Shown here: positions 31,010 to 60,957 of the stretch, one piece after another
Layout of the letters: every line of letters begins with the position of its first letter
Numbering within the stretch: position 1 is the stretch's first letter
DNA from: a virus
Taxonomy: Duplodnaviria; Caudoviricetes
Virus record (IMG/VR): IMGVR_UViG_3300017691_000006
Span: 12,751 to 76,750 of that record
DNA: 64,000 bases
Strand: one strand, 5' to 3'
The notes under the pieces: generated by a model
Seen by the model: only the letters and a program-made list of their open reading frames with translations
Told to the model about the DNA's origin: nothing
Database searches by the model: none
Position numbers and translations under genes: made by a program

Positions 31010-31045
31010 CCTAGGTGTTTCATATAAGATGCTCAGTTCTGCGCG
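31010..31045 (-). promoter_or_regulatory. class B conserved motif, divergent copy
   Basis: Plus strand CCTAGGTGTTTCATATAAGAT-10 nt-GCGCG, same spacing as the three closer copies. Confidence 0.6.
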
Positions 31046-31326
31046 AGCCACTCCTCGACGTGCTGGACCGACACGAGGCCGATCTTGCTGCCCATCAGCA
31101 CCCCGTTCTTGAACAGGTACAGGGTGGGCACGGCCCGGAGCTCCAGCTCCTTGGCCACCAGCGCGTTCTCGGTGACGTCGCAGACGAGCACGTCCTCGCG
31201 GTCGGACAGGCGTTCACCCATCTCGACCGCCAGGTTGGACCAGTCGGTGCGGCAAAGCAGCATCACCCTCCCCGCGCGCTGCTTCACCTTCGCCTCGAAG
31301 TTGGCGTCCGTTACGGCCTCAGGCAC
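31033..31326 (-). CDS. thioredoxin-fold protein lacking CxxC
   Basis: AVTDANFEAKV start, VCDVTEN..VAKELELRAVPTLYLFKNG cis-Pro motif; WCxxC replaced by CRTDWSN. Confidence 0.65.
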   Translation of the reverse strand: MPEAVTDANFEAKVKQRAGRVMLLCRTDWSNLAVEMGERLSDREDVLVCDVTENALVAKELELRAVPTLYLFKNGVLMGSKIGLVSVQHVEEWLAQN

Positions 31327-31645
31327 TCAGCCGCACCTGCACGGGAGCGGACATCTCGCGGATGTCCAGCTCCGCCTCGATGGCGTGCTTGAAGTGTACG
31401 CCGTGCACCGTGATGCGGTAGACCTCGGGACCGACCTCCTTGATGAGGCCGTACTTCAGCAGCTCCTGGATGGAGCGCGCCGACGGGGTGTTAGCCATGA
31501 CGAGCTTCTTCTCGCCGGTCGCCAGCACGTCCTTCTGGAGGTCAGTCACCGTGAAGGGCTTGTTGATGGGAGCCCTGCTCAAGCACAACATCGTGCCTAA
31601 GCTAACCTTGTTGATCAATGCGTGGAAACCGGTAAGCATATTCAT
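31319..31645 (-). CDS. hypothetical protein, possibly winged-helix
   Basis: SIQELLKYGLIKEVGPEVYRIT pattern; probable ATG at 31645. Confidence 0.45.
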   Translation of the reverse strand: MNMLTGFHALINKVSLGTMLCLSRAPINKPFTVTDLQKDVLATGEKKLVMANTPSARSIQELLKYGLIKEVGPEVYRITVHGVHFKHAIEAELDIREMSAPVQVRLSA

Positions 31646-31658
31646 ATCTCCTCTTGGA

Positions 31659-31961
31659 TCAATCGACCTCAATGATGAGGTTCTCGTGGCCATGTTTGTG
31701 GAGGTAGGCCACCCTGTCCTCGTAGCTCATGTTGTCGAGCTCGGCCTGGTTGGACCGTCGAACGAAGGCGTTGACTTGTTTCTCTGCGAAGGCGTTCACC
31801 ATCCGCTGCAGGTCCTGGGGCATGCCGCCCCGGATGATCTGCTCCATCACGTCCTGGCTGATGTCGTCCCGCGCGTGAAGGCTCACGTTCGGTGCGATCA
31901 TGCCGCGGACTCTCTCCTCTACCTCAACTGCCTGTCTGTTCAACATACCACCCCACTCCAC
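31659..31961 (-). CDS. hypothetical protein
   Basis: About 95-100 aa. Confidence 0.5.
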   Translation of the reverse strand: MEWGGMLNRQAVEVEERVRGMIAPNVSLHARDDISQDVMEQIIRGGMPQDLQRMVNAFAEKQVNAFVRRSNQAELDNMSYEDRVAYLHKHGHENLIIEVD

Positions 31962-32026
31962 TCAGTTTGTTGTTGCTGCGGTTGTACTTGCACTATCCCA
32001 CTTGGGCTTTGTCCTTTCATATGGTG

Positions 32027-32287
32027 TTACTGCAGCATATGCAGCTGCGACTCGGCCCGCATGCGCAGGTCGAGAACGGACTCCACCTCCGACGCCTCGC
32101 GGCTCGGGGTCGAGATGTTGAGCACGGGAGGGCCTGCGGGCTTGTGGTCGACCTGCTGGTCGCCCTCGCTCGCCGTGCGTGTCTTGGTGAACTGGTCGAG
32201 CTGCAGCTCAGCTACAACTCCGTTGATGGCGACGACCGCGCCGGGATCGAATTGTTCGAGAAGGTGAATCAGCTGGTGGTTGCGCAT
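32027..32287 (-). CDS. hypothetical protein
   Basis: 86 aa, ATG after CAGG. Confidence 0.45.
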   Translation of the reverse strand: MRNHQLIHLLEQFDPGAVVAINGVVAELQLDQFTKTRTASEGDQQVDHKPAGPPVLNISTPSREASEVESVLDLRMRAESQLHMLQ

Positions 32288-32300
32288 GTTGCCTGCATTT

Positions 32301-32332
32301 AAAAGGGAGTGACACCCGAAGGCATCACTCCC
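32301..32332 (-). terminator. intrinsic terminator
   Basis: GGGAGTGATGCC-TTCG-GGTGTCACTCCC-TTTT. Confidence 0.8.
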
Positions 32333-32342
32333 GTAGTTGTCG

Positions 32343-32630
32343 TCAGAGCGTCTCGAACACCGCCTCGAGCTCGTCCTTGAGCGGGTGGTCCGCTGCGACG
32401 GCTGCGCGCTGGAACACGTCGCGTCGCTCCTCGGAGCCCTCGACCCAGGGCACCAGCACGGACATGATCGAGGCGACGTCGCTCGCCCTATTCTCCGGGT
32501 GGTCCCGGAAGTGACGCGTCATCACGGTCACGGCGTTCTCGCCGGCGTCGGAGACCACGGCCTCGTCCACCTTCGGCGACACCGCCGCGTCGTCGATCAC
32601 GATGTCGTTCGCGTCGTTTTCATCGGCCAT
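32343..32630 (-). CDS. acidic hypothetical protein
   Basis: 95 aa, RBS GAGGA. Confidence 0.6.
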   Translation of the reverse strand: MADENDANDIVIDDAAVSPKVDEAVVSDAGENAVTVMTRHFRDHPENRASDVASIMSVLVPWVEGSEERRDVFQRAAVAADHPLKDELEAVFETL

Positions 32631-32871
32631 TCTTCTTGTCTTCCTCTTCGAGTAGCTTCCTGAGGTCCTCGTAGCCGCCGACGTGGCGACCTCCCATGAA
32701 GACCTGTGGTACGGTGGTGAAGCCGGCGCCTACCAGGAACTCCTTGAACTTGGAGTCCTGGCTGTAGTTGAACAAGCCGACACCCACACCGCGGCTAAGC
32801 AGAAGGTCCTTAGCCCTGTCACACCACTCACAGTTGTCGCGGGTGACAATCACGGCACAGTTGTTATTCAT
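32620..32871 (-). CDS. glutaredoxin (NrdH/Grx-like)
   Basis: CEWC active site, TVPQVF, GGYEDL; probable ATG at 32871. Confidence 0.85.
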   Translation of the reverse strand: MNNNCAVIVTRDNCEWCDRAKDLLLSRGVGVGLFNYSQDSKFKEFLVGAGFTTVPQVFMGGRHVGGYEDLRKLLEEEDKKNGR

Positions 32872-33089
32872 TTTCGAGCAGTTCCTGCAGTGTTCGTCGA
32901 GGCCGTACTCGCGGAGTCCGCATGGTCCACAGGCCATACTTGTTTGCCCTCCTTGATGTCGAAGATGGTCGCGCCCTCCCTCAGCGCCTTGGCGTACGAG
33001 AGGGCGGCGCAGTACAGTTTGAATGCCGTTTGGCCGTAGGTCCAGTCGTCGTCGTGTCCGGAGACGCGGTAACGGTTAACCTTGAACAA
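32868..33089 (-). CDS. hypothetical protein
   Basis: Probable TTG at 33089 after GAGAGG. Confidence 0.4.
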   Translation of the reverse strand: MFKVNRYRVSGHDDDWTYGQTAFKLYCAALSYAKALREGATIFDIKEGKQVWPVDHADSASTASTNTAGTARK

Positions 33090-33582
33090 GCGGCCTCTCC
33101 CTGAACTTCTCCCACAGGGGCCACAGGTCGACGACCTGGACACCCTGCTCGCGAGCGTAGCGTACGGTGTACTCGGAGCCGCCGGTGCCGCTCGATAGCG
33201 ACAGCAGCTTCTGGCTCTCGTCGACCATCTGCCGGTTGCGCTTGAGGTACGCGTCGTCGGTGAAGGTGGGCGACGTCACCGTCACCGTCTCGCACCTAGC
33301 CAGCAGCCGCCTGTAGCGCGTCTGCGCGTCGGCTGGCCAGTGGCGCTCCTGCCCCTCGAACGGCACCCTGGCGTGCACGGGGATACCCAGGACGACGCAA
33401 GCGTCGCACACCGCCTGGTCCCAGCCCTGCGCCATGCCTTGCACGACGTGGAACGCCGTGTCCTGCTCGGCGACCTCGTTGTTGAGGATCAGCCGCGCGA
33501 AGGCGTACAGCTTGTTGCGGCCCTCGATGGAGTAGCCGCCCAGCTTCTCGGGCCTGTGACCCGTCACGGAGAGGCGCATCAT
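33076..33582 (-). CDS. SLOG-superfamily protein (YspA/DUF2493-like)
   Basis: VTGHRPEKL, GMAQGWD, VPFEGQE..W, YLKRNRQMVD.S, SGGSEYTVRYA motifs. Confidence 0.8.
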   Translation of the reverse strand: MMRLSVTGHRPEKLGGYSIEGRNKLYAFARLILNNEVAEQDTAFHVVQGMAQGWDQAVCDACVVLGIPVHARVPFEGQERHWPADAQTRYRRLLARCETVTVTSPTFTDDAYLKRNRQMVDESQKLLSLSSGTGGSEYTVRYAREQGVQVVDLWPLWEKFRERPLVQG

Positions 33583-33782
33583 GTGCGCTTCTGCCTCACG
33601 CCGCCGGGAACGCACCGGTCGATGCGCTCCTTGAGGTCGTCGTAGGTGATGTTCACCATCAGCGACTTGCCGGAGACCATCGTGATCTCGCAGTCGGTGG
33701 CGCCGGGATAGATGAACTCGACGTTGTCGAAGTTCACCATCGTCATCTTGCCGGTGTAGCGGAGGGGTAGCTCAATTACCAT
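33579..33782 (-). CDS. hypothetical protein
   Basis: 67 aa. Confidence 0.5.
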   Translation of the reverse strand: MVIELPLRYTGKMTMVNFDNVEFIYPGATDCEITMVSGKSLMVNITYDDLKERIDRCVPGGVRQKRT

Positions 33783-33966
33783 CGTAGATGCACTCCATGC
33801 TCATGAAGTGGCGGTACAGCATGATCATCTTGCCGCCGTGGAACAGACGGAGCACGCCCCTGTCGTCGCAGCCGTGGTTGTCGACAGTGTGCTCGGTGAC
33901 GCGGTTCTCGTGGGTGACCTTCACCTTGTAGGGCTTGGTCTCGCGGATCATGATATTCAAGCTCAT
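33772..33966 (-). CDS. hypothetical protein
   Basis: 64 aa, ATGA overlap. Confidence 0.5.
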   Translation of the reverse strand: MSLNIMIRETKPYKVKVTHENRVTEHTVDNHGCDDRGVLRLFHGGKMIMLYRHFMSMECIYDGN

Positions 33967-34670
33967 AGGAAGATGTCCTTGGCACTTACCTTGGCAGACA
34001 CAGGTTGCTTCTGAGCGACCGGCTCGGGCTGCCGTACCGGCTCCTTCGGGGTGAAGAAGCTCATGTCCAGGTCGCTGTAGTCGACGGTGGCCGCCACCGC
34101 CTTCTTGACCTCCTTGTACGCGATCACCCAGTCGGGCTGCGCGCGGTTGGTCCAGTTGTTGCCGTTGATCTTCTCGGCCAGGTAGTAGGCCCGGTACGCC
34201 TGCATCGTGTTCTCCCGGTCCATCGGGTCACGCTTGTAGACGTCCGGCACGCATGCTTTCGGCGTCGTGTGGTTGAGGATGACGAACTTGCTCAACCAGT
34301 ACTTCATGGCGGGCACGATCACTCGCGCTCGCTCGAACTTGTCCGGGTTGCCTGGGTAGCGATAGTCGTACTCGTTGACCATCGCTCGGAGGTGGTCCAC
34401 CAGCCAGCTCACGTTCCCGAGGCCCTCGTTCAGCCAGAGGGCGGCGGGGTGGTTGGCGTGGGACAGCCCCGTCCAGGGCACGTCCGGAGCCTTGTCGGGC
34501 ACCAGGTCGGTCTCCACGAACTGGTGCGTCTCGTCGTCGTGCGGGCCGGTGTATCGGCTGGCCCACACGGACAGCAGCTGGCACGATTCGGATATCATTT
34601 TGATGATATGCCGGTCATGCAGCGCGATAGCTGCTTTTGCAGGGTCTTTATCGACGTAGAATATATTCAC
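33963..34670 (-). CDS. pyrimidine-dimer DNA glycosylase-like protein (DenV-related)
   Basis: MNIF.VD.DP..AA..L.D.H..KM..E..QLLS and H.NHP...W signature. Confidence 0.8.
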   Translation of the reverse strand: MNIFYVDKDPAKAAIALHDRHIIKMISESCQLLSVWASRYTGPHDDETHQFVETDLVPDKAPDVPWTGLSHANHPAALWLNEGLGNVSWLVDHLRAMVNEYDYRYPGNPDKFERARVIVPAMKYWLSKFVILNHTTPKACVPDVYKRDPMDRENTMQAYRAYYLAEKINGNNWTNRAQPDWVIAYKEVKKAVAATVDYSDLDMSFFTPKEPVRQPEPVAQKQPVSAKVSAKDIFL

Positions 34671-35173
34671 AGGCCAAGTAGCTCCATCTGGCTGGCTTTG
34701 GCTTTACTGTAAGCTGCCTCAGCCTCCTCGGGCGTGTTGAAGTGCCCGAGATTCTTCTTTTGGAAAGTTGCGCGCCACTTGGCTGTAGAGGGTACGAAGG
34801 ACACACCTAGTATTCCGGTGAGACTGTCCTTGTGAGCAACCACGTTGAGCATGTTGCCAGCTCTCGTGACCAACCGCAGGTTCTCAATGCGGTTGTTGCT
34901 CTTGTTTTGATCTATATGATCTATGTCCATCCCTGCAGGGATAGGTCCGTTGTGCATTATCCAGACCAGCTGGTGCACTCTGAACTTCTTACCCAGCAGG
35001 GTGGTCTGTACGTAGCCTTGCCCGTCGTCGCTGCCTACCCGGCTACCAACCTTAACACGATTACTGGTAGACACGAGCCAGAACAGCTCTCCTTCCTTGT
35101 ACTCAAAGAAGTAGGCTAGGTCCTCAGGGCTGAACTGCACCCTGGGGCGGCACGTGGTTGTTGTGGTATTCAC
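34667..35173 (-). mobile_element. free-standing HNH homing endonuclease with C-terminal AP2-like DNA-binding region
   Basis: HQLVWIMHNG...DIDHIDQNKSNNRIENLRLVT; KWRATF..LGHFNT.EEA..AY; codon usage visibly less GC-biased than neighbours. Confidence 0.88.
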
Positions 35174-35690
35174 TGCTGTGCACCGGGCCGTCCTTCGTGT
35201 GGAAGAACCACGCCTTCTCCTTGCGGAGGGTGGCGAACAGCGAGAGGCAGTCCTTGGACGTGTACACGATCGCGTGCACGGACTCGGCGCTGCGGAGGAC
35301 GACGTCGCCCGCGCTGCGCCACTCGGTCGAGATCAGCTTGTTGGTGCCGGCCTCGTACATCGCCTCGCAGTACTTGCCGCGCACCACCAGCGTGGCGTTG
35401 GACCACGGGTGGCAGTGCGGGTCGTCCGCGTCGCTTCGGGCGTACTCGTGCAGGTAGACGTTCTCCAGCTCGGAGTGCATCCACCCGGAGAAGCCCAGCT
35501 GCTTCGCGGGGTCGTCGTAGATCGGGACGACGGCCTTTCGGGCCAGCATCCAGCGGTTGATGTACGCCGAACCGTTGCGCATGATCGGCTGGTTCGGCGC
35601 GCGGTCCCGCATGACGGCCTCGCAGGCGGAGCGGATCAGTCCCGTCAGCTCGGGCGTCACCGCTTGCGGCAGGTAGCGGAAGTCATTCAT
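35124..35690 (-). CDS. cupin-fold protein
   Basis: YLHEY..SD.DDPHCHPW..ATLVVRGKY.E and VHAIV motifs. Confidence 0.65.
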   Translation of the reverse strand: MNDFRYLPQAVTPELTGLIRSACEAVMRDRAPNQPIMRNGSAYINRWMLARKAVVPIYDDPAKQLGFSGWMHSELENVYLHEYARSDADDPHCHPWSNATLVVRGKYCEAMYEAGTNKLISTEWRSAGDVVLRSAESVHAIVYTSKDCLSLFATLRKEKAWFFHTKDGPVHSSEYHNNHVPPQGAVQP

Positions 35691-36021
35691 TGTCGTTCTT
35701 CTCGCGCTTGATCTTCTTGAACTCGAGGCGACGGTCCCGGTCGTACTCCTCGTTGCTGATCAGGTTCGCGGCCATCTCCCTGACGGTCTCCGGGTCCCGC
35801 TTGAGGGCGGGAGGGAGGCTGTCCGGGTCCGGGTGCTCGATGACCTTGAGCGGGTGCTCGGCCAGGATGGCGTCGCGGGCACGGCGCTGCACCTGGTTGT
35901 CGGTGGACAGGAAGTAGTTGTCGAACTTGTCCTTGCCCGGCTTGTCGTCGTGGAGCTTGCGCGTGTTGGACACGATCTTGTCCGAGATGTCGCGCAGCTC
36001 CTGCATGTGGTCTTCCTGCAT
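35683..36021 (-). CDS. hypothetical protein
   Basis: 112 aa, typical codon bias. Confidence 0.55.
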   Translation of the reverse strand: MQEDHMQELRDISDKIVSNTRKLHDDKPGKDKFDNYFLSTDNQVQRRARDAILAEHPLKVIEHPDPDSLPPALKRDPETVREMAANLISNEEYDRDRRLEFKKIKREKNDNE

Positions 36022-36249
36022 CTAGCCCTTCCTGTAGCGTTCGGACGCACGTCCCTTGAAGGTGTTCTTGTACTCGCGCTCGAAGTCCGCAGGAGACATC
36101 TCGAAGTGCCTGAAGTACGGCCTCATCGGCGGGTGCCAGCCCTCTGCGCGGCCCTTGAGCGGGCTGACAGCTGGACCGCTGGGCTTCACCTTGGCGAGAC
36201 GCTCCGCCAGCATGACGTCCTGCATGCAGTACCGCATGATGTCCTGCAT
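36022..36249 (-). CDS. hypothetical protein
   Basis: 75 aa. Confidence 0.45.
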   Translation of the reverse strand: MQDIMRYCMQDVMLAERLAKVKPSGPAVSPLKGRAEGWHPPMRPYFRHFEMSPADFEREYKNTFKGRASERYRKG

Positions 36250-36299
36250 GTGGGACTTACCGCCCCCGCGAGGCTGGTAGAGGATCTCCGAGCAGGGGC

Positions 36300-37438: not shown

Positions 37439-37458
37439 GGGTTAATTTAACGGGTTGG
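37439..37458 (-). promoter_or_regulatory. class A conserved motif, copy 3
   Basis: GGGTTAATTTAACGGGTTGG. Confidence 0.8.
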
Positions 37459-37485: not shown

Positions 37486-37505
37486 GGGTTAATTTAACGG
37501 GTTGG
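37486..37505 (-). promoter_or_regulatory. class A conserved motif, copy 4
   Basis: GGGTTAATTTAACGGGTTGG, 47 bp from copy 3. Confidence 0.8.
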
Positions 37506-51585: not shown

Positions 51586-51605
51586 GGGTTAATTCAACGG
51601 GTTGG
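51586..51605 (-). promoter_or_regulatory. class A conserved motif, copy 5
   Basis: GGGTTAATTCAACGGGTTGG at the head of the SSB/replication operon. Confidence 0.8.
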
Positions 51606-52278: not shown

Positions 52279-54519
52279 TTAGACGAAACAGTAGTCGGAG
52301 TCCTTCACCAGCGTGATGTCGAGCGTGCCGAACTCGACCTGGCTGATGTCGCCCATGATGTCTTCCATGATGTTGCCGAGCGGGTCGGCGTCGTACAGCT
52401 CCACGAACGTGTCGCGGATCAGCTGGAAGAGCTCGGGCATGTCGGCCAGCAGGCAGCCGAACGAGTCGTGGATGGTAGTGATCGGGAAGTCTGCCTTGGC
52501 CACCGTGATGGTCAGGTGGGCGGCGTCGAGCGAGTGGATGGCGTTCGGCGAGGCGCCGGACACCTGCTTGCCCTTCGACGGCACCTGGTTCTCGATGAAG
52601 CAGATGGCGATCTGGTACGTGTTCGCGTAGTAGCCGGTGGACAGACGCTCGCCGACCGGCGGGCCGTACTGCACCCAGATCTTGCGCGACACGCCCTCGG
52701 TGTAGTACTGGACGACGGGGAAGTCGGTGACCGGCACGGTCCACGACAGGAACTCCCCGGCCTCCTCCGCCTCCCTGCCCGCGTTCTCGAACACGGACAG
52801 CAGCTGCATCGGGCGGCGGAGGCTGACCCGGCAGTCGTCGAACACGACGCGGCCTAGGTAAGAGCCCCACTTGTGCTCCATGAACAGGAGCTTGTCGATG
52901 CCGTGCTTCTTGGAGTCGTCGATCTGCTGCTGGCCCAGGCCGTACGGGGTGCCGCCGTAGGGCAGGGTCATGACGTTGCGCTTGACGATCTTGCGCCGCT
53001 CCTTGGCGTCCGTGACGGACAGCCAGTAGACGGGACTGGACAGGTCGCCGATGCGCTTGTGCATGTCCTTGTAGGCCCGGACCTCGTCGATGAGCATGCT
53101 GCGCTGCACGCTCTTCGGCTCGAGGTTCTGGATGGTCTTCTTGTACTGCACCAGCGTGTCGATGTAGGACACGCAGGCCTTGTAGTCCTCCGGCAAGTAC
53201 GCGGCGACCTCCAGCTGCAGCCGCTCCCACACGTGGTCGGCGACGTACTTGTAGAGGTCACCGGGCAGCTCGCTCGGCACCAGGTTGACGTGCGGCGCCG
53301 TCTCCTCGTCCCTGGTGAGCGCCGAGAGGTGCTGGCTGCCGTTGTTGGAGCCGTCGATGTACACCTCCAGCGAGGACTCGTAGTCGTAGTTCTCGTAGTC
53401 GCCGCCCTGCTGGGTCTGCCAGATACGGAGCTTCATCAGCTCGGTGCAGGCGGCAAGGAACTGCCAGGGCTTGTCGGCCTTCATCCAGCCCTGGTTCACG
53501 CGTGGCTGCTCGGCGTACGAGAGCAGGATGTCCTCGTGCTCCTTACACCACGCGTACCGATCCTTCAGAGGGATCTTGTCGGTCTTTGCCTTGTCTGGTC
53601 GACCAGCATCTCCTGCCCAATTCGAAGCAATGGAGACAAGGAGCCAGAAGAAACCAGGCTCGCCAATCCGCTTGCGATCTGCTCGGAGGAGAAGTCCCCT
53701 TGCCAGATCACTACCTTGCTCGTGGAGGTAGGCGGTGGTGGGGTACTTGCGCCCACGGAAGTCGAAGTAATAGAGATGGTAAAATCGTCGGCCAAGGAAC
53801 CGGCCAGCGATATCTCCAATCGCCTTCGCTTCTCTGAGCTTGGTGGCTCGGGCGTCTTTGCTAGACTGCTCCCAGATATCGCTGAAAGCATCTGTCTTGT
53901 TGCCCAGCGCCCAACGGTACGTTTGATAGATGTCTTGATTGACATTCCAACCAACCTCCTGTGCTTTGTTGAGACAAGCGAACAGCATCGGGTGCGTCTC
54001 GAGCGTGATCTTGTCGAGGACGTCCCTGCTGCCCGTCTTAACCATCGGCATCCCCGTGGCGTGCCTGGAGGTGGTCCAGGGCTCGTACGGGGTCACCGAC
54101 GGCAGCTTCTCGTTGGTCGAGGAGGTCACGGAGGACCACAGACCGACGATGCCGTCGTCGTCCACGAGTCGGACGATGTAGGCGGCGTGGCTCTTGTTGC
54201 CCTGACCGAGTATCACCTCGATCATCTGCAGCTTCTGGAAGGACCACAGCAGGAACGCGCCGGTCTTGGCGGCCAGGCTGGAGTCCCGCTTCTGCTTGAG
54301 CTTGGAGCGCACCGAGTGGCCCAGAGCAGCCACCATCTCCGAGAAGTAGATGGCGGTGCTGCCGAAGCCCTTCTTGACACGCGTGTACATGTACACGACC
54401 GAGATCACGGTGTCAAGGTATTCTTCCACTTGGAACTGCTTGAGGTACTTGAGCGGGTTGCGCGGCGAGACCTCAACCTCGAGCCGCTCCTCAATGCTCT
54501 TCTTCAGCTCAGCGCGCAT
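52279..54519 (-). CDS. T7-like single-subunit DNA-dependent RNA polymerase (746 aa)
   Basis: YYFDFRGRKY, KPWQFLA, IDGSNNGSQH (A), RKIVKRNVMTLPYG (B), PNAIHSLDAAHL and TIHDSF (C). Confidence 0.96.
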   Translation of the reverse strand: MRAELKKSIEERLEVEVSPRNPLKYLKQFQVEEYLDTVISVVYMYTRVKKGFGSTAIYFSEMVAALGHSVRSKLKQKRDSSLAAKTGAFLLWSFQKLQMIEVILGQGNKSHAAYIVRLVDDDGIVGLWSSVTSSTNEKLPSVTPYEPWTTSRHATGMPMVKTGSRDVLDKITLETHPMLFACLNKAQEVGWNVNQDIYQTYRWALGNKTDAFSDIWEQSSKDARATKLREAKAIGDIAGRFLGRRFYHLYYFDFRGRKYPTTAYLHEQGSDLARGLLLRADRKRIGEPGFFWLLVSIASNWAGDAGRPDKAKTDKIPLKDRYAWCKEHEDILLSYAEQPRVNQGWMKADKPWQFLAACTELMKLRIWQTQQGGDYENYDYESSLEVYIDGSNNGSQHLSALTRDEETAPHVNLVPSELPGDLYKYVADHVWERLQLEVAAYLPEDYKACVSYIDTLVQYKKTIQNLEPKSVQRSMLIDEVRAYKDMHKRIGDLSSPVYWLSVTDAKERRKIVKRNVMTLPYGGTPYGLGQQQIDDSKKHGIDKLLFMEHKWGSYLGRVVFDDCRVSLRRPMQLLSVFENAGREAEEAGEFLSWTVPVTDFPVVQYYTEGVSRKIWVQYGPPVGERLSTGYYANTYQIAICFIENQVPSKGKQVSGASPNAIHSLDAAHLTITVAKADFPITTIHDSFGCLLADMPELFQLIRDTFVELYDADPLGNIMEDIMGDISQVEFGTLDITLVKDSDYCFV
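53565..53945 (-). CDS. candidate overprinted 126-aa ORF inside the RNAP gene (+1 frame)
   Basis: ATG 9 nt after AGGAGG; stop-free for 126 codons; coincides with a sharp loss of GC3 bias in the RNAP frame. Confidence 0.55.
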   Translation of the reverse strand: MSIKTSIKRTVGRWATRQMLSAISGSSLAKTPEPPSSEKRRRLEISLAGSLADDFTISITSTSVGASTPPPPTSTSKVVIWQGDFSSEQIASGLASLVSSGSLSPLLRIGQEMLVDQTRQRPTRSL

Positions 54520-55556: not shown

Positions 55557-55593
55557 GGTTGTACCTCTTAGCCGTAAAAAAGTTAGGTGTGGA

Positions 55594-55689: not shown

Positions 55690-55716
55690 GGGCAGTTTTA
55701 CGACTTGCCCAGGTCG
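55690..55716 (-). ncRNA. H-type pseudoknot element, copy 5
   Basis: RNA CGAC-CUGGGCAA-GUCG-UAAAAC-UGCCC; both stems covary; contains the stop codon of the upstream gene. Confidence 0.7.
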
Positions 55717-55892: not shown

Positions 55893-56092
55893 AGGTCCTC
55901 GAACGAGAAGACGACCTTGCCGGCCTTCTTGTTGGGGAGGCTCGCGATGCCCTTGCGGAACACGCCGAGCAGCGAGAGACCCTTCAGCCACACGAAGAGG
56001 CTGACCGCCGCCTTCGCCGAGACGAGCAGCATGCAGATCACCACGATGTAGGCAACGAGGTGTACGGTGTCAAAGAAACCGAGTCCGAACAT
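55889..56092 (-). CDS. 67-aa membrane peptide
   Basis: RBS GGAG; hydrophobic; directly behind a class B motif. Confidence 0.6.
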   Translation of the reverse strand: MFGLGFFDTVHLVAYIVVICMLLVSAKAAVSLFVWLKGLSLLGVFRKGIASLPNKKAGKVVFSFEDL

Positions 56093-56124
56093 TTCATTTC
56101 TCCGCTAAGAGTATTTCCGAGATA

Positions 56125-56162
56125 CCTAGGTGGATATCATATAAGATACCCGCTTTTGCGCG
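56125..56162 (-). promoter_or_regulatory. class B conserved motif
   Basis: Plus strand CCTAGGTGGATATCATATAAGATACCCGCTTTTGCGCG. Confidence 0.75.
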
Positions 56163-56165
56163 GTA

Positions 56166-56294
56166 TCAGTTGTTGTCGTTGGCCCGGTTCACCAGGTTCA
56201 CCGCACCGTTGATGATGTAACCGATCATGCGAATGATCGCCATGAAGCAGTAGATGGTGATGGTGAAGAAACCAGCGACGAGTGCTTCGAGCAT
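56166..56294 (-). CDS. 42-aa membrane micropeptide (MLEALVAGFFTITIYC...)
   Basis: ATG after AGGAG; behind a class B motif. Confidence 0.55.
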   Translation of the reverse strand: MLEALVAGFFTITIYCFMAIIRMIGYIINGAVNLVNRANDNN

Positions 56295-56313
56295 TTTATT
56301 TCTCCTGTTGATA

Positions 56314-56351
56314 CCTAGGGTGATATCATATAAGATACCCCTATTTGCGCG
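56314..56351 (-). promoter_or_regulatory. class B conserved motif
   Basis: Plus strand CCTAGGGTGATATCATATAAGATACCCCTATTTGCGCG. Confidence 0.75.
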
Positions 56352-56353
56352 TT

Positions 56354-56542
56354 TTAGAGGTGCTCCAGGATGTCCTTCACAGCGAAGGTTCTCACCGCGC
56401 GCTTGTCCACGTCGTAGGCGCGGAGCAGCCACTGCTTCTGGGGGTGGTACTTGTTTGAGCTCCACACCAGCGGGCGGTGGGCGTTGGGGACGACGTGCCG
56501 CACGGACACGTCTCCCTTGTAGTTCCGGTAGCGGAACCTCAT
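56354..56542 (-). CDS. stand-alone WYL-domain protein (62 aa)
   Basis: FRYRNYKG..S.RHVVP...WLLRAYDVDKRAVRTFAVKDI matches the WYL pattern; ATG at 56542 overlaps upstream stop. Confidence 0.7.
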   Translation of the reverse strand: MRFRYRNYKGDVSVRHVVPNAHRPLVWSSNKYHPQKQWLLRAYDVDKRAVRTFAVKDILEHL

Positions 56543-56691
56543 CGCTTGCGACGTTTCGCCTTCTTCTTCGCCCCGAACAGCAGCGCCTTCAGCCCGCTGG
56601 TCTTGGCCTTCTTCTTGCGGAGCTTCGCCTTCTTGGCCATCTCCGCGTGGGTGCCCTTCGGCACGTACGGTCTGTCCCATTTGTTTCCCAT
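56539..56691 (-). CDS. 50-aa Lys-rich basic peptide
   Basis: MGNKWDRPYVPKGTHAEMAKKAKLRKKKAKTSGLKALLFGAKKKAKRRKR; typical codon bias. Confidence 0.55.
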   Translation of the reverse strand: MGNKWDRPYVPKGTHAEMAKKAKLRKKKAKTSGLKALLFGAKKKAKRRKR

Positions 56692-56694
56692 CTC

Positions 56695-57039
56695 TCAATT
56701 ATCGGGCGTCGGGGTGTCCGTGCCCTCTGCTGCTGCGGCGTCGCTGAGCTGCTTGCTCTCGCCGCCCTGGTGCTCGCCGACGTTCAGGTCGGTCTGCTCC
56801 GTGTACTCGTCGTCTTCGGGTCGCATTTGCCATCCTTTCTCTGTCTGCTCGAACTTGCCGGACCTGACCAGCGCTCCGGCGATGCGCTTGCTCGTGAACT
56901 TGTTCTTGGGTAGCTTCTTACGCAGGGCGCTCAGCGATATAGCCGTCTGCCCAGCTGCAACCGCCACTGCCGTTGAGCAGATCAGCCTGTCGGTTTGCTT
57001 CTGCGACGAGCGCTGATGCGCGAGAACCGTGTAGGCCAT
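56695..57039 (-). CDS. hypothetical protein
   Basis: 114 aa, ATG after GGAG. Confidence 0.5.
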   Translation of the reverse strand: MAYTVLAHQRSSQKQTDRLICSTAVAVAAGQTAISLSALRKKLPKNKFTSKRIAGALVRSGKFEQTEKGWQMRPEDDEYTEQTDLNVGEHQGGESKQLSDAAAAEGTDTPTPDN

Positions 57040-57358
57040 CGTTCCACTCCCTCACCCAAACGTGCATGAACGCGAAGGCAGCCAGCGAGTGGCTGAATAT
57101 CCGCGTCTCAACGCAGTGCTCGGCGCCGCTCGCGTCCGCGAAGACGAAGCAGTGACCGTGCGCCCTTGACCACCCTCTTACGCTTCGAGCCACGAAGGGC
57201 CTTGGCAGGTTCCAGTACCGCAGCGTCTCCTCCTGCTGCCGGAGCTGCTGCCAGGCCTGCAGGGTCTCCGGCGTCAGCGTGTGCAGCAGGCCGAGGCCCT
57301 CGAGCCTTGGCAACGCCTCCAGGGCCAAAGAACGTAGGGCTGAGGTGGAGCTCATCAT
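56918..57358 (-). CDS. hypothetical protein
   Basis: Central part shows strong GC3 bias; overlaps both neighbours. Confidence 0.45.
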   Translation of the reverse strand: MMSSTSALRSLALEALPRLEGLGLLHTLTPETLQAWQQLRQQEETLRYWNLPRPFVARSVRGWSRAHGHCFVFADASGAEHCVETRIFSHSLAAFAFMHVWVREWNDGLHGSRASALVAEANRQADLLNGSGGCSWADGYIAERPA

Positions 57359-57746
57359 AGTAGTGGTTTCCGATCGGCTTGATGAACACGGGAGAGTCCT
57401 CGACCAGCCGGTGCGGCTGACCCATCTTCTCCGACGTGATGTTGAACTTCATGGCGGCTGCGGCCATGATGTCGATGCCCATGGCGGTGCAGAACATCTG
57501 CAGCGAGATGTAGCAGTCGCCCACCTCCTCCGCGATCTTCTGCATGACGTCTTCCTGCGTGAGGTCACGGTTGTCGTTGTAGCCGACGCGCAGCCGGTTC
57601 ATCTTCTTGTAGGCGTCGCTGAGCTCCCCGGACTCGCCGGCGAACTCCTGCAGCCACTCGCCCGGAGTCCAGTGCTCCAGAGGGCCGACGGCGTTGCCGC
57701 GTATGATGGTGGCCTGCTTGATGGTTGCGGGCGTGGTGTGGGTCAT
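57108..57746 (-). CDS. MazG-like nucleotide pyrophosphohydrolase
   Basis: FAGESGELSDAYKK...IAEEVGDCYISL...KFN EXXE motifs; last ~80 codons overlap the next gene and look non-coding. Confidence 0.75.
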   Translation of the reverse strand: MTHTTPATIKQATIIRGNAVGPLEHWTPGEWLQEFAGESGELSDAYKKMNRLRVGYNDNRDLTQEDVMQKIAEEVGDCYISLQMFCTAMGIDIMAAAAMKFNITSEKMGQPHRLVEDSPVFIKPIGNHYYDELHLSPTFFGPGGVAKARGPRPAAHADAGDPAGLAAAPAAGGDAAVLEPAKALRGSKRKRVVKGARSLLRLRGRERRRALR

Positions 57747-58339
57747 CGCATTAGCTCCTTTATCTGTTCGAGTCGCTTGAGTACGTAGTCTTCGTCGGGC
57801 TTGTCGTAGAGGCCGTCGAGCGAGGGCACCTCCTTGCCGTTGCCGAAGCGGAAGGCGAAGGTGTGTTCGTCGACCGGCACCTTGTCCTCGTGCTGGACCA
57901 GCAGCAGGACCGTCTGGGGGTCGTCGATCGAGATCGTGTGGATGTCGGTGTGGGCGCTGAAGTAGGACTTGTCACGCTCGTACTTGAACGCGCCCTTCTC
58001 CCGCATGGCCACCTCCCTGGCCCACTCGAAGCCGTCTCCGCCGTTGAGCGGGGTCATGTACCGGAACATCTGCGCGCGGTGCGTGCGCGGAGCCTCGGTG
58101 ACCAGCGGCGCGAGGTCGTAGGTGCGGTTCACCACGCTGCCGGCAAGGACGTGGGTGTAGAAGTCGTAGCGGTGGTCGTGCGGGACGACCGCCTCGGGCA
58201 GCTGCGATACCTCGCCCTCGAAGAAGTAGGCCTTGACGGTCAGCTGGGGCGACCGCGCCAGGCAGAGGTAGTCGAAGCCCTTGCAGTGGAAGTTGATGAA
58301 AGAGTTCTTCACGATGTCGTGCAGGTCGTCGTAGCGCAT
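57743..58339 (-). CDS. cupin-fold protein
   Basis: VVPHDHRYDFYTHVLAG and DIHTI metal-ligand motifs. Confidence 0.65.
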   Translation of the reverse strand: MRYDDLHDIVKNSFINFHCKGFDYLCLARSPQLTVKAYFFEGEVSQLPEAVVPHDHRYDFYTHVLAGSVVNRTYDLAPLVTEAPRTHRAQMFRYMTPLNGGDGFEWAREVAMREKGAFKYERDKSYFSAHTDIHTISIDDPQTVLLLVQHEDKVPVDEHTFAFRFGNGKEVPSLDGLYDKPDEDYVLKRLEQIKELMR

Positions 58340-58346
58340 TGTTACC

Positions 58347-58739
58347 TCAGAGCTGGATGCTGGCTGCCGACACCTTCGGGCCCTCGGGCTTCGGCGTCGG
58401 TACGTGGTCGGCGCTGACCTCCACCAGCTCGGGCTGGGGCAGCTGCGCCTCGTAGATCTTGTTGCGGCACGCCCAGATGGCGTCGTACAGGTGGACGCCG
58501 GTAGAGGACTGCGTGCCCTTCGGGTGCAGCATGGTCACCCTGAACATGCCGCGCGAGCTGTCCGGGTTCGGGGGCAGCACCTCGACCTTGGTCTCGAACG
58601 CCTCGGCGTGCATGCAGAGCTTCATCAGCGCCACCTCCAGCGCCTCCAGCTCCTCGCGTGTTGTGGGTATCGGCGCCTCGTTGAACAGCTGCCGCTCGCT
58701 CTTGAGCTGCGCCCTGATGCGCTCGTCTCTCTTGTTCAT
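58347..58739 (-). CDS. hypothetical protein
   Basis: 130 aa. Confidence 0.55.
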   Translation of the reverse strand: MNKRDERIRAQLKSERQLFNEAPIPTTREELEALEVALMKLCMHAEAFETKVEVLPPNPDSSRGMFRVTMLHPKGTQSSTGVHLYDAIWACRNKIYEAQLPQPELVEVSADHVPTPKPEGPKVSAASIQL

Positions 58740-58774
58740 GTCTTTGCTCTCGCCGAAAAGTAGTTAGGTGTGGA

Positions 58775-58801
58775 GGCCAGTTTAACGTCGTGGCCAGGAC
58801 G
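58775..58801 (-). ncRNA. H-type pseudoknot element, copy 6
   Basis: RNA CGUC-CUGGCCAC-GACG-UUAAAC-UGGCC. Confidence 0.7.
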
Positions 58802-58806
58802 GACTG

Positions 58807-59151
58807 CTACTGGTTGGCGGGAGCCGTGCGGAAGCTGAACTCCTCCGTGACCTTACCGTTGCACAGCCGCTCGATGCGCGAGGCGATCCTGCTGTTCGCC
58901 CGCTTCACGTACATGTTGTACTTGTCGTCGGCCTCGATCGAGTCGGGGTAGTGAACGACCATGGGCGGCGAGTTGTCGTTGAACACGACGCGGACGGCGT
59001 GGTCGTCCAGCCGCTCCAGCTGTTCCAGCAGGTTCTCCACCTCGTTGTCGAGAACGCTCTCGAGCGCGAGCAGGCCGTTGATGAGCTTCGTCAGCACCCA
59101 GATGGTACCGAGGAAGAGGTGGTAGAAGGTCTTGAGAAGGATCTTGTGCAT
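58807..59151 (-). CDS. hypothetical protein with N-terminal hydrophobic helix
   Basis: 114 aa. Confidence 0.55.
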   Translation of the reverse strand: MHKILLKTFYHLFLGTIWVLTKLINGLLALESVLDNEVENLLEQLERLDDHAVRVVFNDNSPPMVVHYPDSIEADDKYNMYVKRANSRIASRIERLCNGKVTEEFSFRTAPANQ

Positions 59152-59191
59152 GTTGACTCTCCGCTAGGGATGACTGTCGGGTTGGGTTGGT

Positions 59192-59542
59192 TCAGCGCAG
59201 CGATCGCGCCAGGCGGTCGGCAAAGGCCTTGTGCTCGGGGCACAGGTCCTTCGTCAGCTCGCGGTACTTCTGGATAACGAGGTAGTCGTCGCAGAGCTGG
59301 ACCATCACCGTCAGAGGCAGGCCCATCTCCGCCGCCGAGCGTGCGATCACGTCGGCGACGTGCTTGAGCTCGACCTTGCTTTCGATCTCGCCGTTCGCCT
59401 TGGCCTCCGCGCGTGCGGCCGAGCTAGCGGCCTTCTCCAGCAGGTCGAAGCCGAAGTCGTTCATGATAACGGCGATGGGGTGCTTTTCGAACGCCTTGCC
59501 GCCGGCGAATAGGTCGGCGAGGGTCTGTGCGAATACGATCAT
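59192..59542 (-). CDS. hypothetical protein (MIVFAQTL...)
   Basis: Probable ATG at 59542 after AAAGG. Confidence 0.5.
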   Translation of the reverse strand: MIVFAQTLADLFAGGKAFEKHPIAVIMNDFGFDLLEKAASSAARAEAKANGEIESKVELKHVADVIARSAAEMGLPLTVMVQLCDDYLVIQKYRELTKDLCPEHKAFADRLARSLR

Positions 59543-59556
59543 GGTGTTGTTACCTT

Positions 59557-59868
59557 TCACTTGTGGTTGATGGTCAGAGTTCTCTCGGAGCTGCGGTGTG
59601 GGTAGTGAACGTACCGCTTGTCTCCGATGAGGTCGTGAAGCTTCTTGTTGCTCTGCCGGAGCAGGAGCATGGGGACGGCGTACCAGCATCGGCAGCGGGT
59701 GAGCCTGAGCTCGCTGTCCAGCTCCTGCTTGCTGCGGACGATGTGCAGCTCGCTGACAGTGGTGAACAGCAGCGCGTAGTTGCCGCCCTCCAGCGTGTTC
59801 AAGAGGCGGTCCGCGCACACGCGGTGGAAGTGCTGCAGGAGCTCGTCCTGCTTGTAGAACTGCGTCAT
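59557..59868 (-). CDS. hypothetical protein
   Basis: 103 aa, RBS GGAG. Confidence 0.55.
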   Translation of the reverse strand: MTQFYKQDELLQHFHRVCADRLLNTLEGGNYALLFTTVSELHIVRSKQELDSELRLTRCRCWYAVPMLLLRQSNKKLHDLIGDKRYVHYPHRSSERTLTINHK

Positions 59869-59871
59869 GGC

Positions 59872-60447
59872 TCACTCCTTGCCGTCTGCTAGGGCAAATG
59901 CCTTGAGTACGTCAGCCCTGTCCTTCACCACCCACTCAGCGCGGTTAGGGCCTATAGATGGTAGCTTACCTACGGCCTCGCGAGCTTCCTCATCAGGTAG
60001 CGCGAGGTATTCTGCAACCTGCGCTCGCATTTCCAACAAGCGGAAGGCCGTCAGTTCGCCCACGAACGGCAGCCGTGCAAGGATGCGAACAGCCTCATTC
60101 CAGCGTGTGTAGCTGTCCTCCTCCTCTGGAGAAGAGAAGGCTGACGGCTCCCTGGGGACGAGCGCTAGGGCAGCTTGCACTTGCTCGCGCATTACCCACA
60201 GGGACCGCACCCAGTCAACGCGGAACTTTTCTGGCAAACCGTGCAGCAAGGCTAACCATCCCTCTGAGTAGTCCATCGATGCCGGTAGCTTGGCGTAGAG
60301 GTCAGTTATCTCTCTTCTGTAAGTTATTATAGTATTGACAGCAGTGCTGCCATTGATACCAGGCAACGCCTGTAGGGCGTCGTTGAGCACGGCCAACTCC
60401 TCGCCGCTGTACAGCGCGATAGTGGCCTTGACGTTGCGGAGCCTCAC
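59872..60447 (-). CDS. protein with two helix-hairpin-helix DNA-binding motifs, atypical codon usage
   Basis: LQALPGINGSTA and VGKLPSIGPNRA; probable GTG at 60447. Confidence 0.5.
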   Translation of the reverse strand: MRLRNVKATIALYSGEELAVLNDALQALPGINGSTAVNTIITYRREITDLYAKLPASMDYSEGWLALLHGLPEKFRVDWVRSLWVMREQVQAALALVPREPSAFSSPEEEDSYTRWNEAVRILARLPFVGELTAFRLLEMRAQVAEYLALPDEEAREAVGKLPSIGPNRAEWVVKDRADVLKAFALADGKE

Positions 60448-60527
60448 TTGCGGAACAGCCACTTGAAGACGTGGACCAGCACGAGGCACTTGATGAAGTC
60501 ACGGAACATAGTCATTCTCCTCTTGGG

Positions 60528-60881
60528 TTAGAACTTGTACTTACCAGTCGCTCGCATGAGCTTGTGGATGTGCCTGTACAGGTTGCCGACGGTGCAGGCC
60601 ACGGTCTCTTCGCCGGGATCGTCCTCACCGATGGCTTTCAGCAAGGCGACGGCGGCGTGGACGCACTCGTGCGCCAGCGTGGTCTGCAGCTCGAGGCCCC
60701 GCTGGGAGGCATCGATGTAGACCAGCAGCTGGCCGTCAAACAGCTTGTCGAAGACGCTGCCGTAGGGCGTACCATCCAGCGGCGGGAGGTCGTGCTTACG
60801 CATGAACTTGTTGAGCTTCTTAGCACTGGTGAACAGGCGGACAGATGCGCCGTCTGCCGAGACTAGCGTGATCTTTCGCAT
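60528..60881 (-). CDS. small HExxH putative zinc metallopeptidase-like protein
   Basis: TLAHECVHAA...IGEDDPGEE; paralog of 9056..9496; first gene after a class B motif. Confidence 0.6.
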   Translation of the reverse strand: MRKITLVSADGASVRLFTSAKKLNKFMRKHDLPPLDGTPYGSVFDKLFDGQLLVYIDASQRGLELQTTLAHECVHAAVALLKAIGEDDPGEETVACTVGNLYRHIHKLMRATGKYKF

Positions 60882-60890
60882 GGGTACTCC

Positions 60891-60921
60891 AAAATAAAGG
60901 GAGACCTCCGAAGAGATCTCC
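60891..60921 (-). terminator. intrinsic terminator after endolysin
   Basis: GGAGATCTC-TTCG-GAGGTCTCC-CTTTATTTT. Confidence 0.8.
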
Positions 60922-60957
60922 TAGGTGGATATCATATAAGATACCCGTTTTTGCGCG
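60920..60957 (-). promoter_or_regulatory. class B conserved motif at the start of the early region
   Basis: Plus strand CCTAGGTGGATATCATATAAGATACCCGTTTTTGCGCG. Confidence 0.75.

Follow-up and report, generated by a model that had tools for sequence, protein, structure and literature searches.

On balance, class B, a 28-bp element found in four copies in the virus record IMGVR_UViG_3300017691_000006 (IMG/VR), appears to be the early promoter of a large uncultured phage family with two RNA polymerases, recognised as duplex DNA in the manner of T7 promoters and read by a divergent single-subunit polymerase that is fused to a MuF head-protein domain. It would serve as promoter for a large, globally distributed clade that includes cultured roseophages with deoxyuridine-containing DNA (dU-DNA). 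Host-independent early transcription is, to our knowledge, little documented beyond N4-like phages and uracil-DNA jumbo phages. If the assignment is true, a capsid-delivered polymerase need not rely on the N4 hairpin mechanism, and class B and its reader would form a compact orthogonal promoter/polymerase pair. Coordinates refer to the window, the whole 64,000-nt stretch of DNA that was analysed, which corresponds to positions 12,751 to 76,750 of the 76,750-bp genome.

A position matrix for class B, trained on relatives only, was run over both strands of the 76,750-bp genome. It returned exactly the four copies claimed in the initial annotation, all on the minus (gene) strand, and no further site above 12 bits on either strand (Table 1). 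The 19-mer GGTATCTTATATGATATCC is found on the minus strand at 60927–60945, 56132–56150 and, with one mismatch, 56321–56339; no matches are expected from 100 shuffles. B1 begins 1 nt past the stop codon of the late CHAP lysis gene, B2 is followed by a 42-codon hydrophobic ORF and B3 by a 67-aa ORF (56092–55889). The fourth copy, whose core ATCTTATATGA runs downwards from 31030, is real: its upstream part, GCGC-AGAA-CTG-AG-CATCTTATATGA, agrees with the family consensus, and the relatives G001 and G004 carry class B copies at the equivalent position. It lies within an accessory-gene block that follows the T7-like polymerase gene at a distance of ~21 kb, and the end of ORF 31326–31033 extends into its upstream half. 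The spacing previously described as shared by all copies holds for the upstream part of copy 4 only, as its TATGA-to-CCTAGG gap is 1–2 nt shorter. Similarly, CCACCTAGG, which had been counted as part of the element, lies outside the conserved region and is present only in the closest GC-rich relatives. A nucleotide search of the early region against GenBank phages gave no match.

Table 1. Class B copies and associated features, in window coordinates.
Feature	Position	Strand	Remarks
Class B promoter copy 1 (B1)	60930..60957	-	-24 to +4; predicted +1 G 60933; 45.8 bits
Class B promoter copy 2 (B2)	56324..56351	-	Predicted +1 G 56327; 45.4 bits
Class B promoter copy 3 (B3)	56135..56162	-	Predicted +1 G 56138; 41.5 bits
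Class B promoter copy 4	31018..31045	-	Predicted +1 G 31021; 33.8 bits
Predicted 5′ leader stem of B2 transcript	56310..56327	-	GATATC-ACCCTA-GGTATC, from +1
Predicted 5′ leader stem of B3 transcript	56121..56138	-	GATATC-CACCTA-GGTATC, from +1
9-bp stem-loop	60891..60921	-	GGAGATCTC-TTCG-GAGGTCTCC then CTTTATTTT; +13 to +43 of predicted B1 transcript
T7-like single-subunit RNA polymerase gene, 746 aa	52279..54519	-	Near distal end of B-only early region
MuF head-protein domain fused to divergent single-subunit RNA polymerase, 1556 aa	4074..8744	-	
CHAP / tail-lysozyme-like lysis gene	60958..61497	-	Last late gene before B1
Class A promoter-like 20-mer	61966..61985	-	Heads small late lysis cassette upstream of B1
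Class A promoter-like 20-mer	51586..51605	-	Closes early region, opens replication module

Across the family, 76 distinct class B copies from about 50 IMG/VR relatives (31–65% GC) define the 28-bp consensus YGCGS-AAAAW-NNN-RG-TATCTTATAT-G-AWR. Conservation extends to positions that were not selected by the search (-24, -19 to -15, -12 to -10 and +2 to +4). Promoters of T7, T3 and SP6 combine an A/T-rich upstream part, a specific core, an AT-rich pre-start segment and an initiating G. Class B resembles them in being a near-identical, multi-copy element on the gene strand with structured 5′ leaders, and it shares with T7-type duplex promoters a contiguous block of at least ~20 bp that is near-identical among copies and reaches the start site. 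Within this block AAAAW occupies -19 to -15 and ATAT -4 to -1, followed by an invariant G, where +1 was placed from the leader stems. Class B differs from the T7 group in reaching further upstream (GCGS is conserved at -23 to -20), in serving genes that precede the T7-like polymerase gene and in having no sequence similarity to T7-group promoters.

Transcription must start inside the motif, since in several copies a ribosome-binding site begins 0–2 nt past it (for example TATGAAA-AGGAGG-TACT-ATG in L004). In 19 of 76 copies the conserved G is the first base of a stem of 4 bp or more, compared with 6.0 ± 2.5 copies after shuffling, and the mean folding z-score of the RNA leaders is -1.22 for +1 to +30 and -0.07 for +31 to +60. 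In B2 and B3, the right arm GATATC of the repeat is predicted to form, with a GGTATC further downstream, a stem in the 5′ RNA leader instead of a DNA hairpin. The stem-loop downstream of B1 is predicted to act as a leader hairpin or as an attenuator/terminator; a 12-bp stem with a T-run occupies the corresponding place in G004, the closest relative.

The genome encodes two single-subunit polymerases with intact catalytic motifs, both of them candidates for the cognate enzyme of class B. The gene for the MuF fusion sits in the late terminase–portal operon. Its product matches Pfam RNA_pol and MuF and retains the invariant residues D1006 (motif A), K1072/Y1080 (motif B) and H1454-D1455 (motif C). 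A profile of the fused protein gave a weak match to T7 RNA polymerase in the PDB (E 0.009), and a PDB search with its sequence alone gave none. The fused polymerase is encoded by at least 460 IMG/VR contigs, and the best 80 of 460 relatives all belong to one clade. A literature search retrieved no description of a MuF–polymerase fusion. The MuF domain and the late-operon position of the gene argue for packaging of the enzyme, without proving its ejection into the cytoplasm. Every tested genome that is at least 90% complete carries both motif classes and both polymerases, and the latter are encoded by all four tested B-bearing genomes of that completeness; because they always co-occur, presence or absence cannot separate the two enzymes.

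In each of five full genomes, two to three class B copies precede the T7-like polymerase gene by 1–4 kb; in this phage, as in four other full genomes, three copies lie inside 4.8 kb upstream of that gene. Class A, which has no sequence in common with class B, heads the replication, packaging and capsid genes and has no site in the early region. The earlier proposal that class B is a promoter class preceding early genes is supported, and the class is distinct from class A. The early region is insulated from upstream transcription because the first class B copy is placed after the late lysis cassette and, in many relatives, after a terminator: in 13 of 76 copies a strong hairpin with a T-run ends no more than 18 nt upstream. 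The T7-like polymerase cannot start transcription of a B-only region, since its own gene lies inside that region. G001 has a class A and a class B site in tandem, separated by 64 nt. The 'direct terminal repeats' of G002 (127 bp) and G004 (123 bp) are products of assembly circularisation and are therefore uninformative on which end enters the cell first.

A similar organisation is found in the cultured roseophage DSS3_VP1, whose gp108 is 30% identical to the fused protein over its full length. Its B-like motif, GTGAGAAAACTAAGGCATCTATAATGA, which includes a perfect TATAAT, occurs twice, just past the terminator that ends the late region; it is homologous to class B and lies at the equivalent place. 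A second, T7-style class in DSS3_VP1, ATAGGGTGCGTTAAAG, has 13 copies, of which the sole early-region copy (38541) is apparently within a gene; this class and class A share CGTTAAA. DSS3_VP1 and DSS3_PM1 contain dU-DNA (PMC8323127), and no homologue of the DSS3_VP1 dCTP deaminase was found in this phage. The literature on Naomviridae, including the DSS3_VP1 and dU-DNA papers, contained no promoter, transcript, virion proteome or enzyme assay.

Four other explanations of class B were weighed. The initial annotation had pointed to an inverted repeat, GGTATC-TTATAT-GATA(T)CC, and to possible hairpin dependence. The repeat is present in three copies as a bulged 6-bp stem, and the virion polymerase of N4 requires a promoter hairpin (PMC13492108), both of which favour recognition of class B as an extruded hairpin; the fourth copy, however, is stemless. 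Folded as DNA, the stems reach -1.9 to -3.2 kcal/mol, no better than chance on either strand (z -0.4 to +0.9 against shuffles), and of the 76 family copies only 26 keep the 4-bp TATC:GATA pairing and only 3 have a 6-bp stem; compensatory changes are absent. An N4-type promoter was rejected on these grounds, a z-score of about 0 and an unconserved stem, and is exceedingly improbable. It is nearly as hard to regard class B as a protein operator or as an RNA processing or translation signal. The 14-mer TATCTTATATGATA is near-palindromic in this phage (12 of 14 positions), as an operator might be, but the palindrome is missing in about half of the family, in which the right end reads GAAA or GAAG, and the element is asymmetric across its 28 bp. 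Rfam gave no family match at B or C sites, and little or no transcript would enter class B in the 13 instances in which a terminator directly precedes it.

A reading in which the 746-aa T7-like enzyme uses class B as its second promoter class, and class A belongs to the fused polymerase, is improbable, even though the layout of A-tract, specific core, AT-rich segment and initiating G is like that of T7-group promoters. The gene for this enzyme lies behind class B sites only, and many relatives have a strong terminator before the region, so the enzyme would be unable to start its own synthesis. Furthermore, class A, rather than class B, heads the genes listed above and shares CGTTAAA with the 13-copy class of DSS3_VP1, in which no intergenic early-region copy is evident, the two classes have no common sequence, and the tandem in G001 is sensible only if the sites have different readers or are used at different times. 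Reading by host RNA polymerase, through sigma-70, an alternative sigma or a conserved host factor, with the fused polymerase otherwise employed, is unlikely but the strongest of these alternatives. Early genes of T7-like phages are transcribed by the host polymerase, and the DSS3_VP1 variant contains TATAAT. In addition, exact class B copies head bacterial operons in genomes in which no single-subunit polymerase was found (neither phage polymerase in five genomes bearing such orphan copies); these copies need expression without the phage enzyme, unless it co-arrives, which leaves room for a host factor. Against this, the 28 positions are constant over phages of 31–65% GC and over alpha-, beta- and gammaproteobacterial loci, and we know of no ordinary sigma-70 promoters with such constancy. 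The start site must fall inside the motif, and the exact motif has just 29 matches in 185,579 bacterial genomes (about 1 expected by our own calculation), all but one in mobile-element-like contexts. The -35/-10 geometry of sigma-70 promoters is lacking: a conserved GCGS replaces TTG, the hexamer at 16–17 bp is NNGCGS, and about half of the copies have A in place of the would-be -7 T of TATGAW. As the initial annotation rightly remarked, the hexamer found 17 nt before TATGAT does not resemble TTGACA. None of the B sites was called on the gene strand by a sigma-70 consensus scan; in the early region its matches were few, 6 compared with 1.7 ± 1.5 after shuffling, and half of the 6 were on the non-coding strand. 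Sigma-70 promoter identity was rejected on geometry and conservation.

Position, logic and exclusion make the MuF-fused polymerase the most likely reader of class B; this assignment and the injection of the enzyme are both inferred. It is proposed that class B is read by a polymerase already present when infection begins. The MuF-fused enzyme would be a late product that rides in the capsid by means of its MuF domain and enters the cell along with the DNA; it would then transcribe the ~9-kb early region from three B sites and one accessory block from the fourth. Recognition would be by sequence, as in T7, through the upstream A-tract, the specific core, the AT-rich melting segment and the initiating G; transcription would begin at or beside the invariant G, and many transcripts would open with a 5′ stem-loop. 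Early transcription would yield the T7-like polymerase, which would then take over from class A promoters and transcribe the genes for replication, packaging, the capsid and lysis.

Host-independent transcription from the first minute is achieved by the uracil-DNA phages PBS2 and AR9 with virion and non-virion multisubunit polymerases. The proposed system is similar in assigning early genes to a virion enzyme, and its cultured relatives also have dU-DNA, but the PBS2/AR9 enzymes are multisubunit and unrelated to the single-subunit enzymes considered here. In coliphage N4, the early promoters P1–P3 are read by an injected virion RNA polymerase, in a relay to a second phage polymerase (PMC13492108). 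N4 (Schitoviridae) thus resembles the present phage in having three early promoters in 8–9 kb, few and clustered upstream of the next polymerase gene, and in the relay from a capsid-delivered polymerase that is proposed here. In contrast, N4 promoters are hairpins with a -11G that need supercoiling and SSB, and class B is a 28-bp sequence with no conserved stem; the N4 enzyme has 3500 aa, compared with the 1556-aa MuF fusion, and the packaging module is also different. A 2017 survey of polyvalent proteins found N4-like virion polymerases only in N4-like phages.

Twenty-eight non-phage bacterial loci have the exact motif heading small integrase/VapE/antirestriction elements, which are candidate satellites. 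A tyrosine integrase is present in 9 loci, plus 2 remnants, and VapE in L196 and L193, as well as in the plasmid element L214, whose B-like motif is diverged. The operons are co-directional and extend 4–6 kb from class B to int. As in satellites, an integrase and an own replication initiator are combined in a small element without capsid genes; direct repeats and tRNAs did not define att sites. The shared promoter and one shared gene (L210:2169–2672, a homologue of the phage gene that immediately follows that of the T7-like polymerase) are the only links of these elements to the phage family, and the B-driven genes gave no homologues in phage loci and no PADLOC hits. Tentatively, the elements may be silent until infection by a phage of this family brings in the capsid-borne polymerase and switches the whole element on, as satellites or as a defence trap wired to the helper's enzyme; on packaging in a helper capsid, co-packaged polymerase might allow the integrase and the antirestriction genes to be expressed once the next cell is entered. 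The late promoters of satellite P4 are switched on by Ogr of P2. The bacterial elements are like P4, PICI, PICMI and VEIME elements in being small and co-directional, with a tyrosine integrase and in many cases a VapE-type replication protein. In those satellites, however, a helper activator or anti-repressor acts on the host polymerase, and a helper promoter with a delivered helper polymerase is proposed here. No satellites described as using a helper polymerase promoter were retrieved by a literature search; the orphan copies thus suggest a way for satellites or defence islands to sense infection that is new relative to the literature found. The elements resemble the minimal marine satellites of PMC10803314 and PMC9618062. 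A class A-like site (1 mismatch), without the usual leader stem, occurs in one bacterial locus only, L190. Host leads from the orphan copies include Sphingomonadales, Caulobacterales, Methylophilaceae, Alteromonadales and others.

The AT-rich repeats (class B) are present at the positions named by the initial annotation, and their significance is far greater than four copies imply. A scanning matrix trained on relatives only recovers exactly four class B sites in the whole genome (33.8–45.8 bits), and no other position exceeds 12 bits. An IMG/VR search using the T7-like RNA polymerase of this phage yielded ~58 related loci (43–72% identity), and class B lies on the gene strand in nearly all of those that cover the upstream region. 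Seventy-six distinct copies, from genomes of 31–65% GC, give the consensus Y(-24) GCG S AAAA W NNN R G TATCTTATAT G A W R(+4), where +1 is the invariant G of TATG. The family search was keyed to the 10-nt core ATCTTATATG and GCG; conservation at unselected positions is found at -24, -20 to -15, -12 to -10 and +2 to +4. CCACCTAGG, which had been counted as part of the element, is conserved in the closest GC-rich relatives only. The proposal that class B is a promoter is well supported by this comparative evidence.

The window covers bases 12751–76750 of an IMG/VR phage record 76,750 bp long. All genes of the window (63% GC) are carried on the minus strand, among them those of two single-subunit RNA polymerases. 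The gene for the larger, in which a MuF head-protein domain is fused to a divergent polymerase part, sits in the late packaging operon and adjoins the portal gene. Alignment with three relatives shows invariant residues in motif A (D1006 with SSSG), motif B (K1072/Y1080-G) and motif C (H1454-D1455), and the alignment profile has T7 RNA polymerase as its top, weak match in the PDB (E 0.009). Among cultured phages, the closest to this one are the dU-DNA roseophages DSS3_VP1 and DSS3_PM1 (Naomviridae; T7-like polymerase 35% identical); a homologue of the DSS3_VP1 dCTP deaminase was sought in this phage and not found. In several related genomes (G001, G010–G013), the fused polymerase gene is in 2–5 pieces, 0.4–1 kb apart, and the ORF in G001 stops after 1099 aa. 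Insertions (introns, inteins or homing endonucleases) seem a better explanation for these split genes than decay. G010 and G004 also have the T7-like polymerase gene in two parts.

Features of the phage window and of bacterial loci with orphan class B copies
Feature	Coordinates	Strand	Remarks
Class B promoter motif	B1 60957–60930; B2 56351–56324; B3 56162–56135; B4 31045–31018	minus	
Class A 20-mer repeat, six copies	61966–61985; 51586–51605; 37486–37505; 37439–37458; 16699–16718; 4052–4071	minus	CCAACCCGTTAAATTAACCC
Class C repeat, five copies	58786; 55701; 55605; 30922; 30272	minus	~50 nt; core GTTAAACTGGCC
Mini-ORF region after B4	31004–30996	minus	AGGAGG, 5-nt spacer, two-codon ATG AAG TAA; precedes a class C element, then a 197-aa ORF
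T7-like single-subunit RNA polymerase	52279–54519	minus	746 aa; Pfam RNA_pol E 9e-65; PDB T7 RNA polymerase E 5e-45
Fused protein	4074–8744	minus	1556 aa; N-terminal MuF head-protein domain and divergent polymerase part (residues ~650–1556)
tRNA gene	82–152	minus	In structural region; Rfam 61.7 bits
Early-region ORF	57108–57746		Weak MazG-like pyrophosphatase match
Representative orphan B element, uncultured Erythrobacter	L196:1794–5973		
Representative orphan B element	L193:3248–7994		
Representative orphan B element, Methylophilus	L210:2681–7999		
Representative orphan B element	L209		
Methylophilus ORF just upstream of orphan B	L210:2169–2672; L191		Homologue of a phage gene
PARIS-like pair, Thalassotalea	L199:5587–7838		AAA_15/21 ATPase and DUF4435/TOPRIM; adjoins one of the B elements of this genus

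The layout of the repeats was compared across five full genomes, comprising this phage and four relatives of 74–79 kb. Class A, which is conserved in the four related genomes, heads the replication module, the terminase–portal–MuF–polymerase operon and, directly after the fused-polymerase stop, the scaffold/capsid genes. It is followed by a leader stem CCC(T)-N4-5-(A)GGG, and is likely to be the promoter of the 746-aa polymerase. Class A also heads a small cassette ~1 kb upstream of the first class B site, which in this phage encodes a CHAP/tail-lysozyme-like protein and is thus a late lysis unit. B1 begins 1 nt beyond the CHAP-gene stop codon, and 13 of the 76 family copies are preceded by a strong hairpin (-12 to -19 kcal/mol) and T-run ending no more than 18 nt upstream of the motif. 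Between the first class B site and the class A site that follows the polymerase gene, only B sites occur, together with class C elements, and the T7-like polymerase gene sits in this stretch. Three of the five genomes have an extra B site 18–21 kb downstream of that gene; the one in G001 follows a class A site at a distance of 64 nt.

The class A copies at 61981 and 16714 have ~30 more downstream nucleotides in common (gccgcc-c-cccggccgta-ggcccctct), and the corresponding pair likewise has downstream sequence in common in each of G001, G002 and G004. All five class C elements lie inside B-driven units and none inside A-driven units. By eye, they show compensating changes in one stem (CGTC/GACG versus CGAC/GTCG) and in another (GGTC/GACC, AGCC/GGCT, GGGC/GCCC); they have no match in Rfam.

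Several class B copies carry a Shine–Dalgarno sequence 0–2 nt past the motif, as in the relative phage locus L004 (TATGAAA-AGGAGG-TACT-ATG), which places the transcription start within the conserved block. Across the family, the 30-nt stretch beginning at the G folds more stably than shuffled sequences (mean z -1.22), compared with -0.07 for the following 30 nt. A helix of at least 4 bp begins exactly at the G in 19/76 copies, as against 6.0 ± 2.5 (maximum 12) for shuffled downstream sequence. These leader stems vary in sequence among copies (GATAAC/GTTATC, GAAGAG/CTCTTC, GGTATA/TATACC), and in B2 and B3 GATATC pairs with a downstream GGTATC. Judged from sequence, the class B transcript probably starts at or next to the G, with its 5′ end paired.

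The hairpin mechanism suggested earlier for class B, modelled on the N4 virion enzyme, is not supported. As single-stranded DNA, the inverted repeat folds at -1.9 to -3.2 kcal/mol on either strand, close to chance (z -0.4 to +0.9), and the fourth copy has no such stem. The TATC:GATA core pairs in only 26/76 family copies, since about half of the copies end on the right in GAAA or GAAG, and a 6-bp stem forms in 3/76. The N4 enzyme requires a promoter stem (PMC13492108), and class B does not look like such a promoter. Its layout of A-tract, specific core, ATAT and predicted initiating G is instead like that of T7-kind promoters.

Recognition of class B by host sigma-70 fits badly: TATGAW could serve as a -10 element, but has no conserved -7T, and the upstream block is conserved as GCGS rather than TTG. 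A sigma-70 start site would land within the ribosome-binding site, 28 positions are constant across very different genomes, and sigma-70-like matches in the early region are few and weak. The 746-aa enzyme cannot be what reads class B first, since its own gene lies behind B sites only and terminators insulate the region in many relatives. With both disfavoured, a polymerase that enters with the DNA remains. MuF proteins belong to the phage head and often carry fused effector domains that are injected (PMC5512222), and the MuF-fused protein, as a putative virion polymerase, is the best available candidate for the reader of class B. Both enzymes are present in all four of the tested B-bearing genomes that are at least 90% complete, so co-occurrence cannot tell the readers apart. 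The conservation of two promoter classes alongside two polymerases is compatible with a relay, in which the virion enzyme would read class B, the T7-like enzyme would be produced, and this enzyme would then read class A.

Through the cultured relative DSS3_VP1, which grows on Ruegeria pomeroyi DSS-3, the hypothesis becomes accessible to tests in culture. The fused protein is homologous over its full length to DSS3_VP1 gp108, which is annotated ‘head morphogenesis’. DSS3_VP1 carries 13 copies of a T7-style class, ATAGGGTGCGTTAAAG, which has CGTTAAA in common with class A and whose sole early-region copy (38541) is apparently within a gene. A B-like motif, GTGAGAAAACTAAGGCATCTATAATGA, is present in three copies: 35808 and 36255 immediately follow the terminator of the tape-measure gene, and 67792 follows another terminator, before a homologue of window ORF 22821–20830. 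The same B-like pair is carried by DSS3_PM1. The start G of CATCTATAATG-A is predicted at ~35820, 36267 and 67804 in DSS3_VP1, and the stem of the second copy begins at the G. Published work on DSS3_VP1 contains no transcription or virion data, and GTGAGAAAACTAAGGCATCTATAATGA and ATAGGGTGCGTTAAAG are neither annotated nor discussed there.

Class B also occurs as orphan copies in bacteria. Scanning 185,579 bacterial genomes (one per species) with an exact 25-nt degenerate pattern gave 29 matches, where ~1 is expected by chance by our estimate (about 40 bits over both strands of 596 Gb). One match lies on a phage contig that had been binned into a MAG; at the remaining 28 loci, a Methylophilus ORF excepted, nothing is homologous to the proteins of the five phage genomes. 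These orphan copies occur in alpha-, beta- and gammaproteobacterial chromosomes, and provide host leads for the phage family. On chromosomes or MAG contigs, they were found in Pontixanthobacter, Erythrobacter, Sphingomonas, Sphingobium, Brevundimonas, Caulobacter, Methylophilus, Nitrosomonas, Thalassotalea, Marinomonas, Methylophaga, Crenothrix and Cellvibrionales. Strains with such loci include Brevundimonas terrae DSM 17329 (L188), Thalassotalea litorea MCCC 1K03283 (L199/L212) and Methylophilus rhizosphaerae CBMB127 (L210); in the uncultured Erythrobacter (L196) the element from B to the integrase is intact. Leader stems from +1 are present in 10/25 orphan copies, compared with 3.25 ± 1.6 after shuffling (mean z -1.21).

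The orphan loci are related to one another. Downstream of the motif and co-directional with it is a protein family with the N-terminus ‘IRIIKQxTC’ (11 loci and two plasmid loci) or, alternatively, another small protein family (six loci and one plasmid locus); RadC, a KlcA/ArdB-type antirestriction protein (four loci) or a DUF4230 protein is also found. A VapE-type replication protein comes next at two loci and in the plasmid element L214, and a tyrosine integrase is last, 4–6 kb from the motif, at nine loci (two plasmid loci included) and as two remnants. The architecture recurs on a Pseudomonas plasmid, where the motif has diverged (CACCTTATATGA) and is accompanied by a leader stem.

The orphan elements are most simply read as satellite-like or defence elements that borrow a phage early promoter, which makes them candidate satellites or defence traps. 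A host factor may read class B, but an operon of integrase and replication genes would be unstable if a host promoter drove it constitutively, which argues that a phage-borne enzyme reads class B. In five of these bacterial genomes the 14-nt core is confined to the orphan B sites, and Pfam RNA_pol and the fused-protein profile found no match, such blanks being weak evidence. Apart from the promoter, the only phage link is provided by the Methylophilus ORF, which is 35–37% identical (E 1e-27) to the gene that, in G001 and G004, comes directly after that of the T7-like polymerase. Orphan B elements often neighbour defence genes. A Schlafen-like helicase adjoins the L184 element, and a reverse transcriptase adjoins that of L207.
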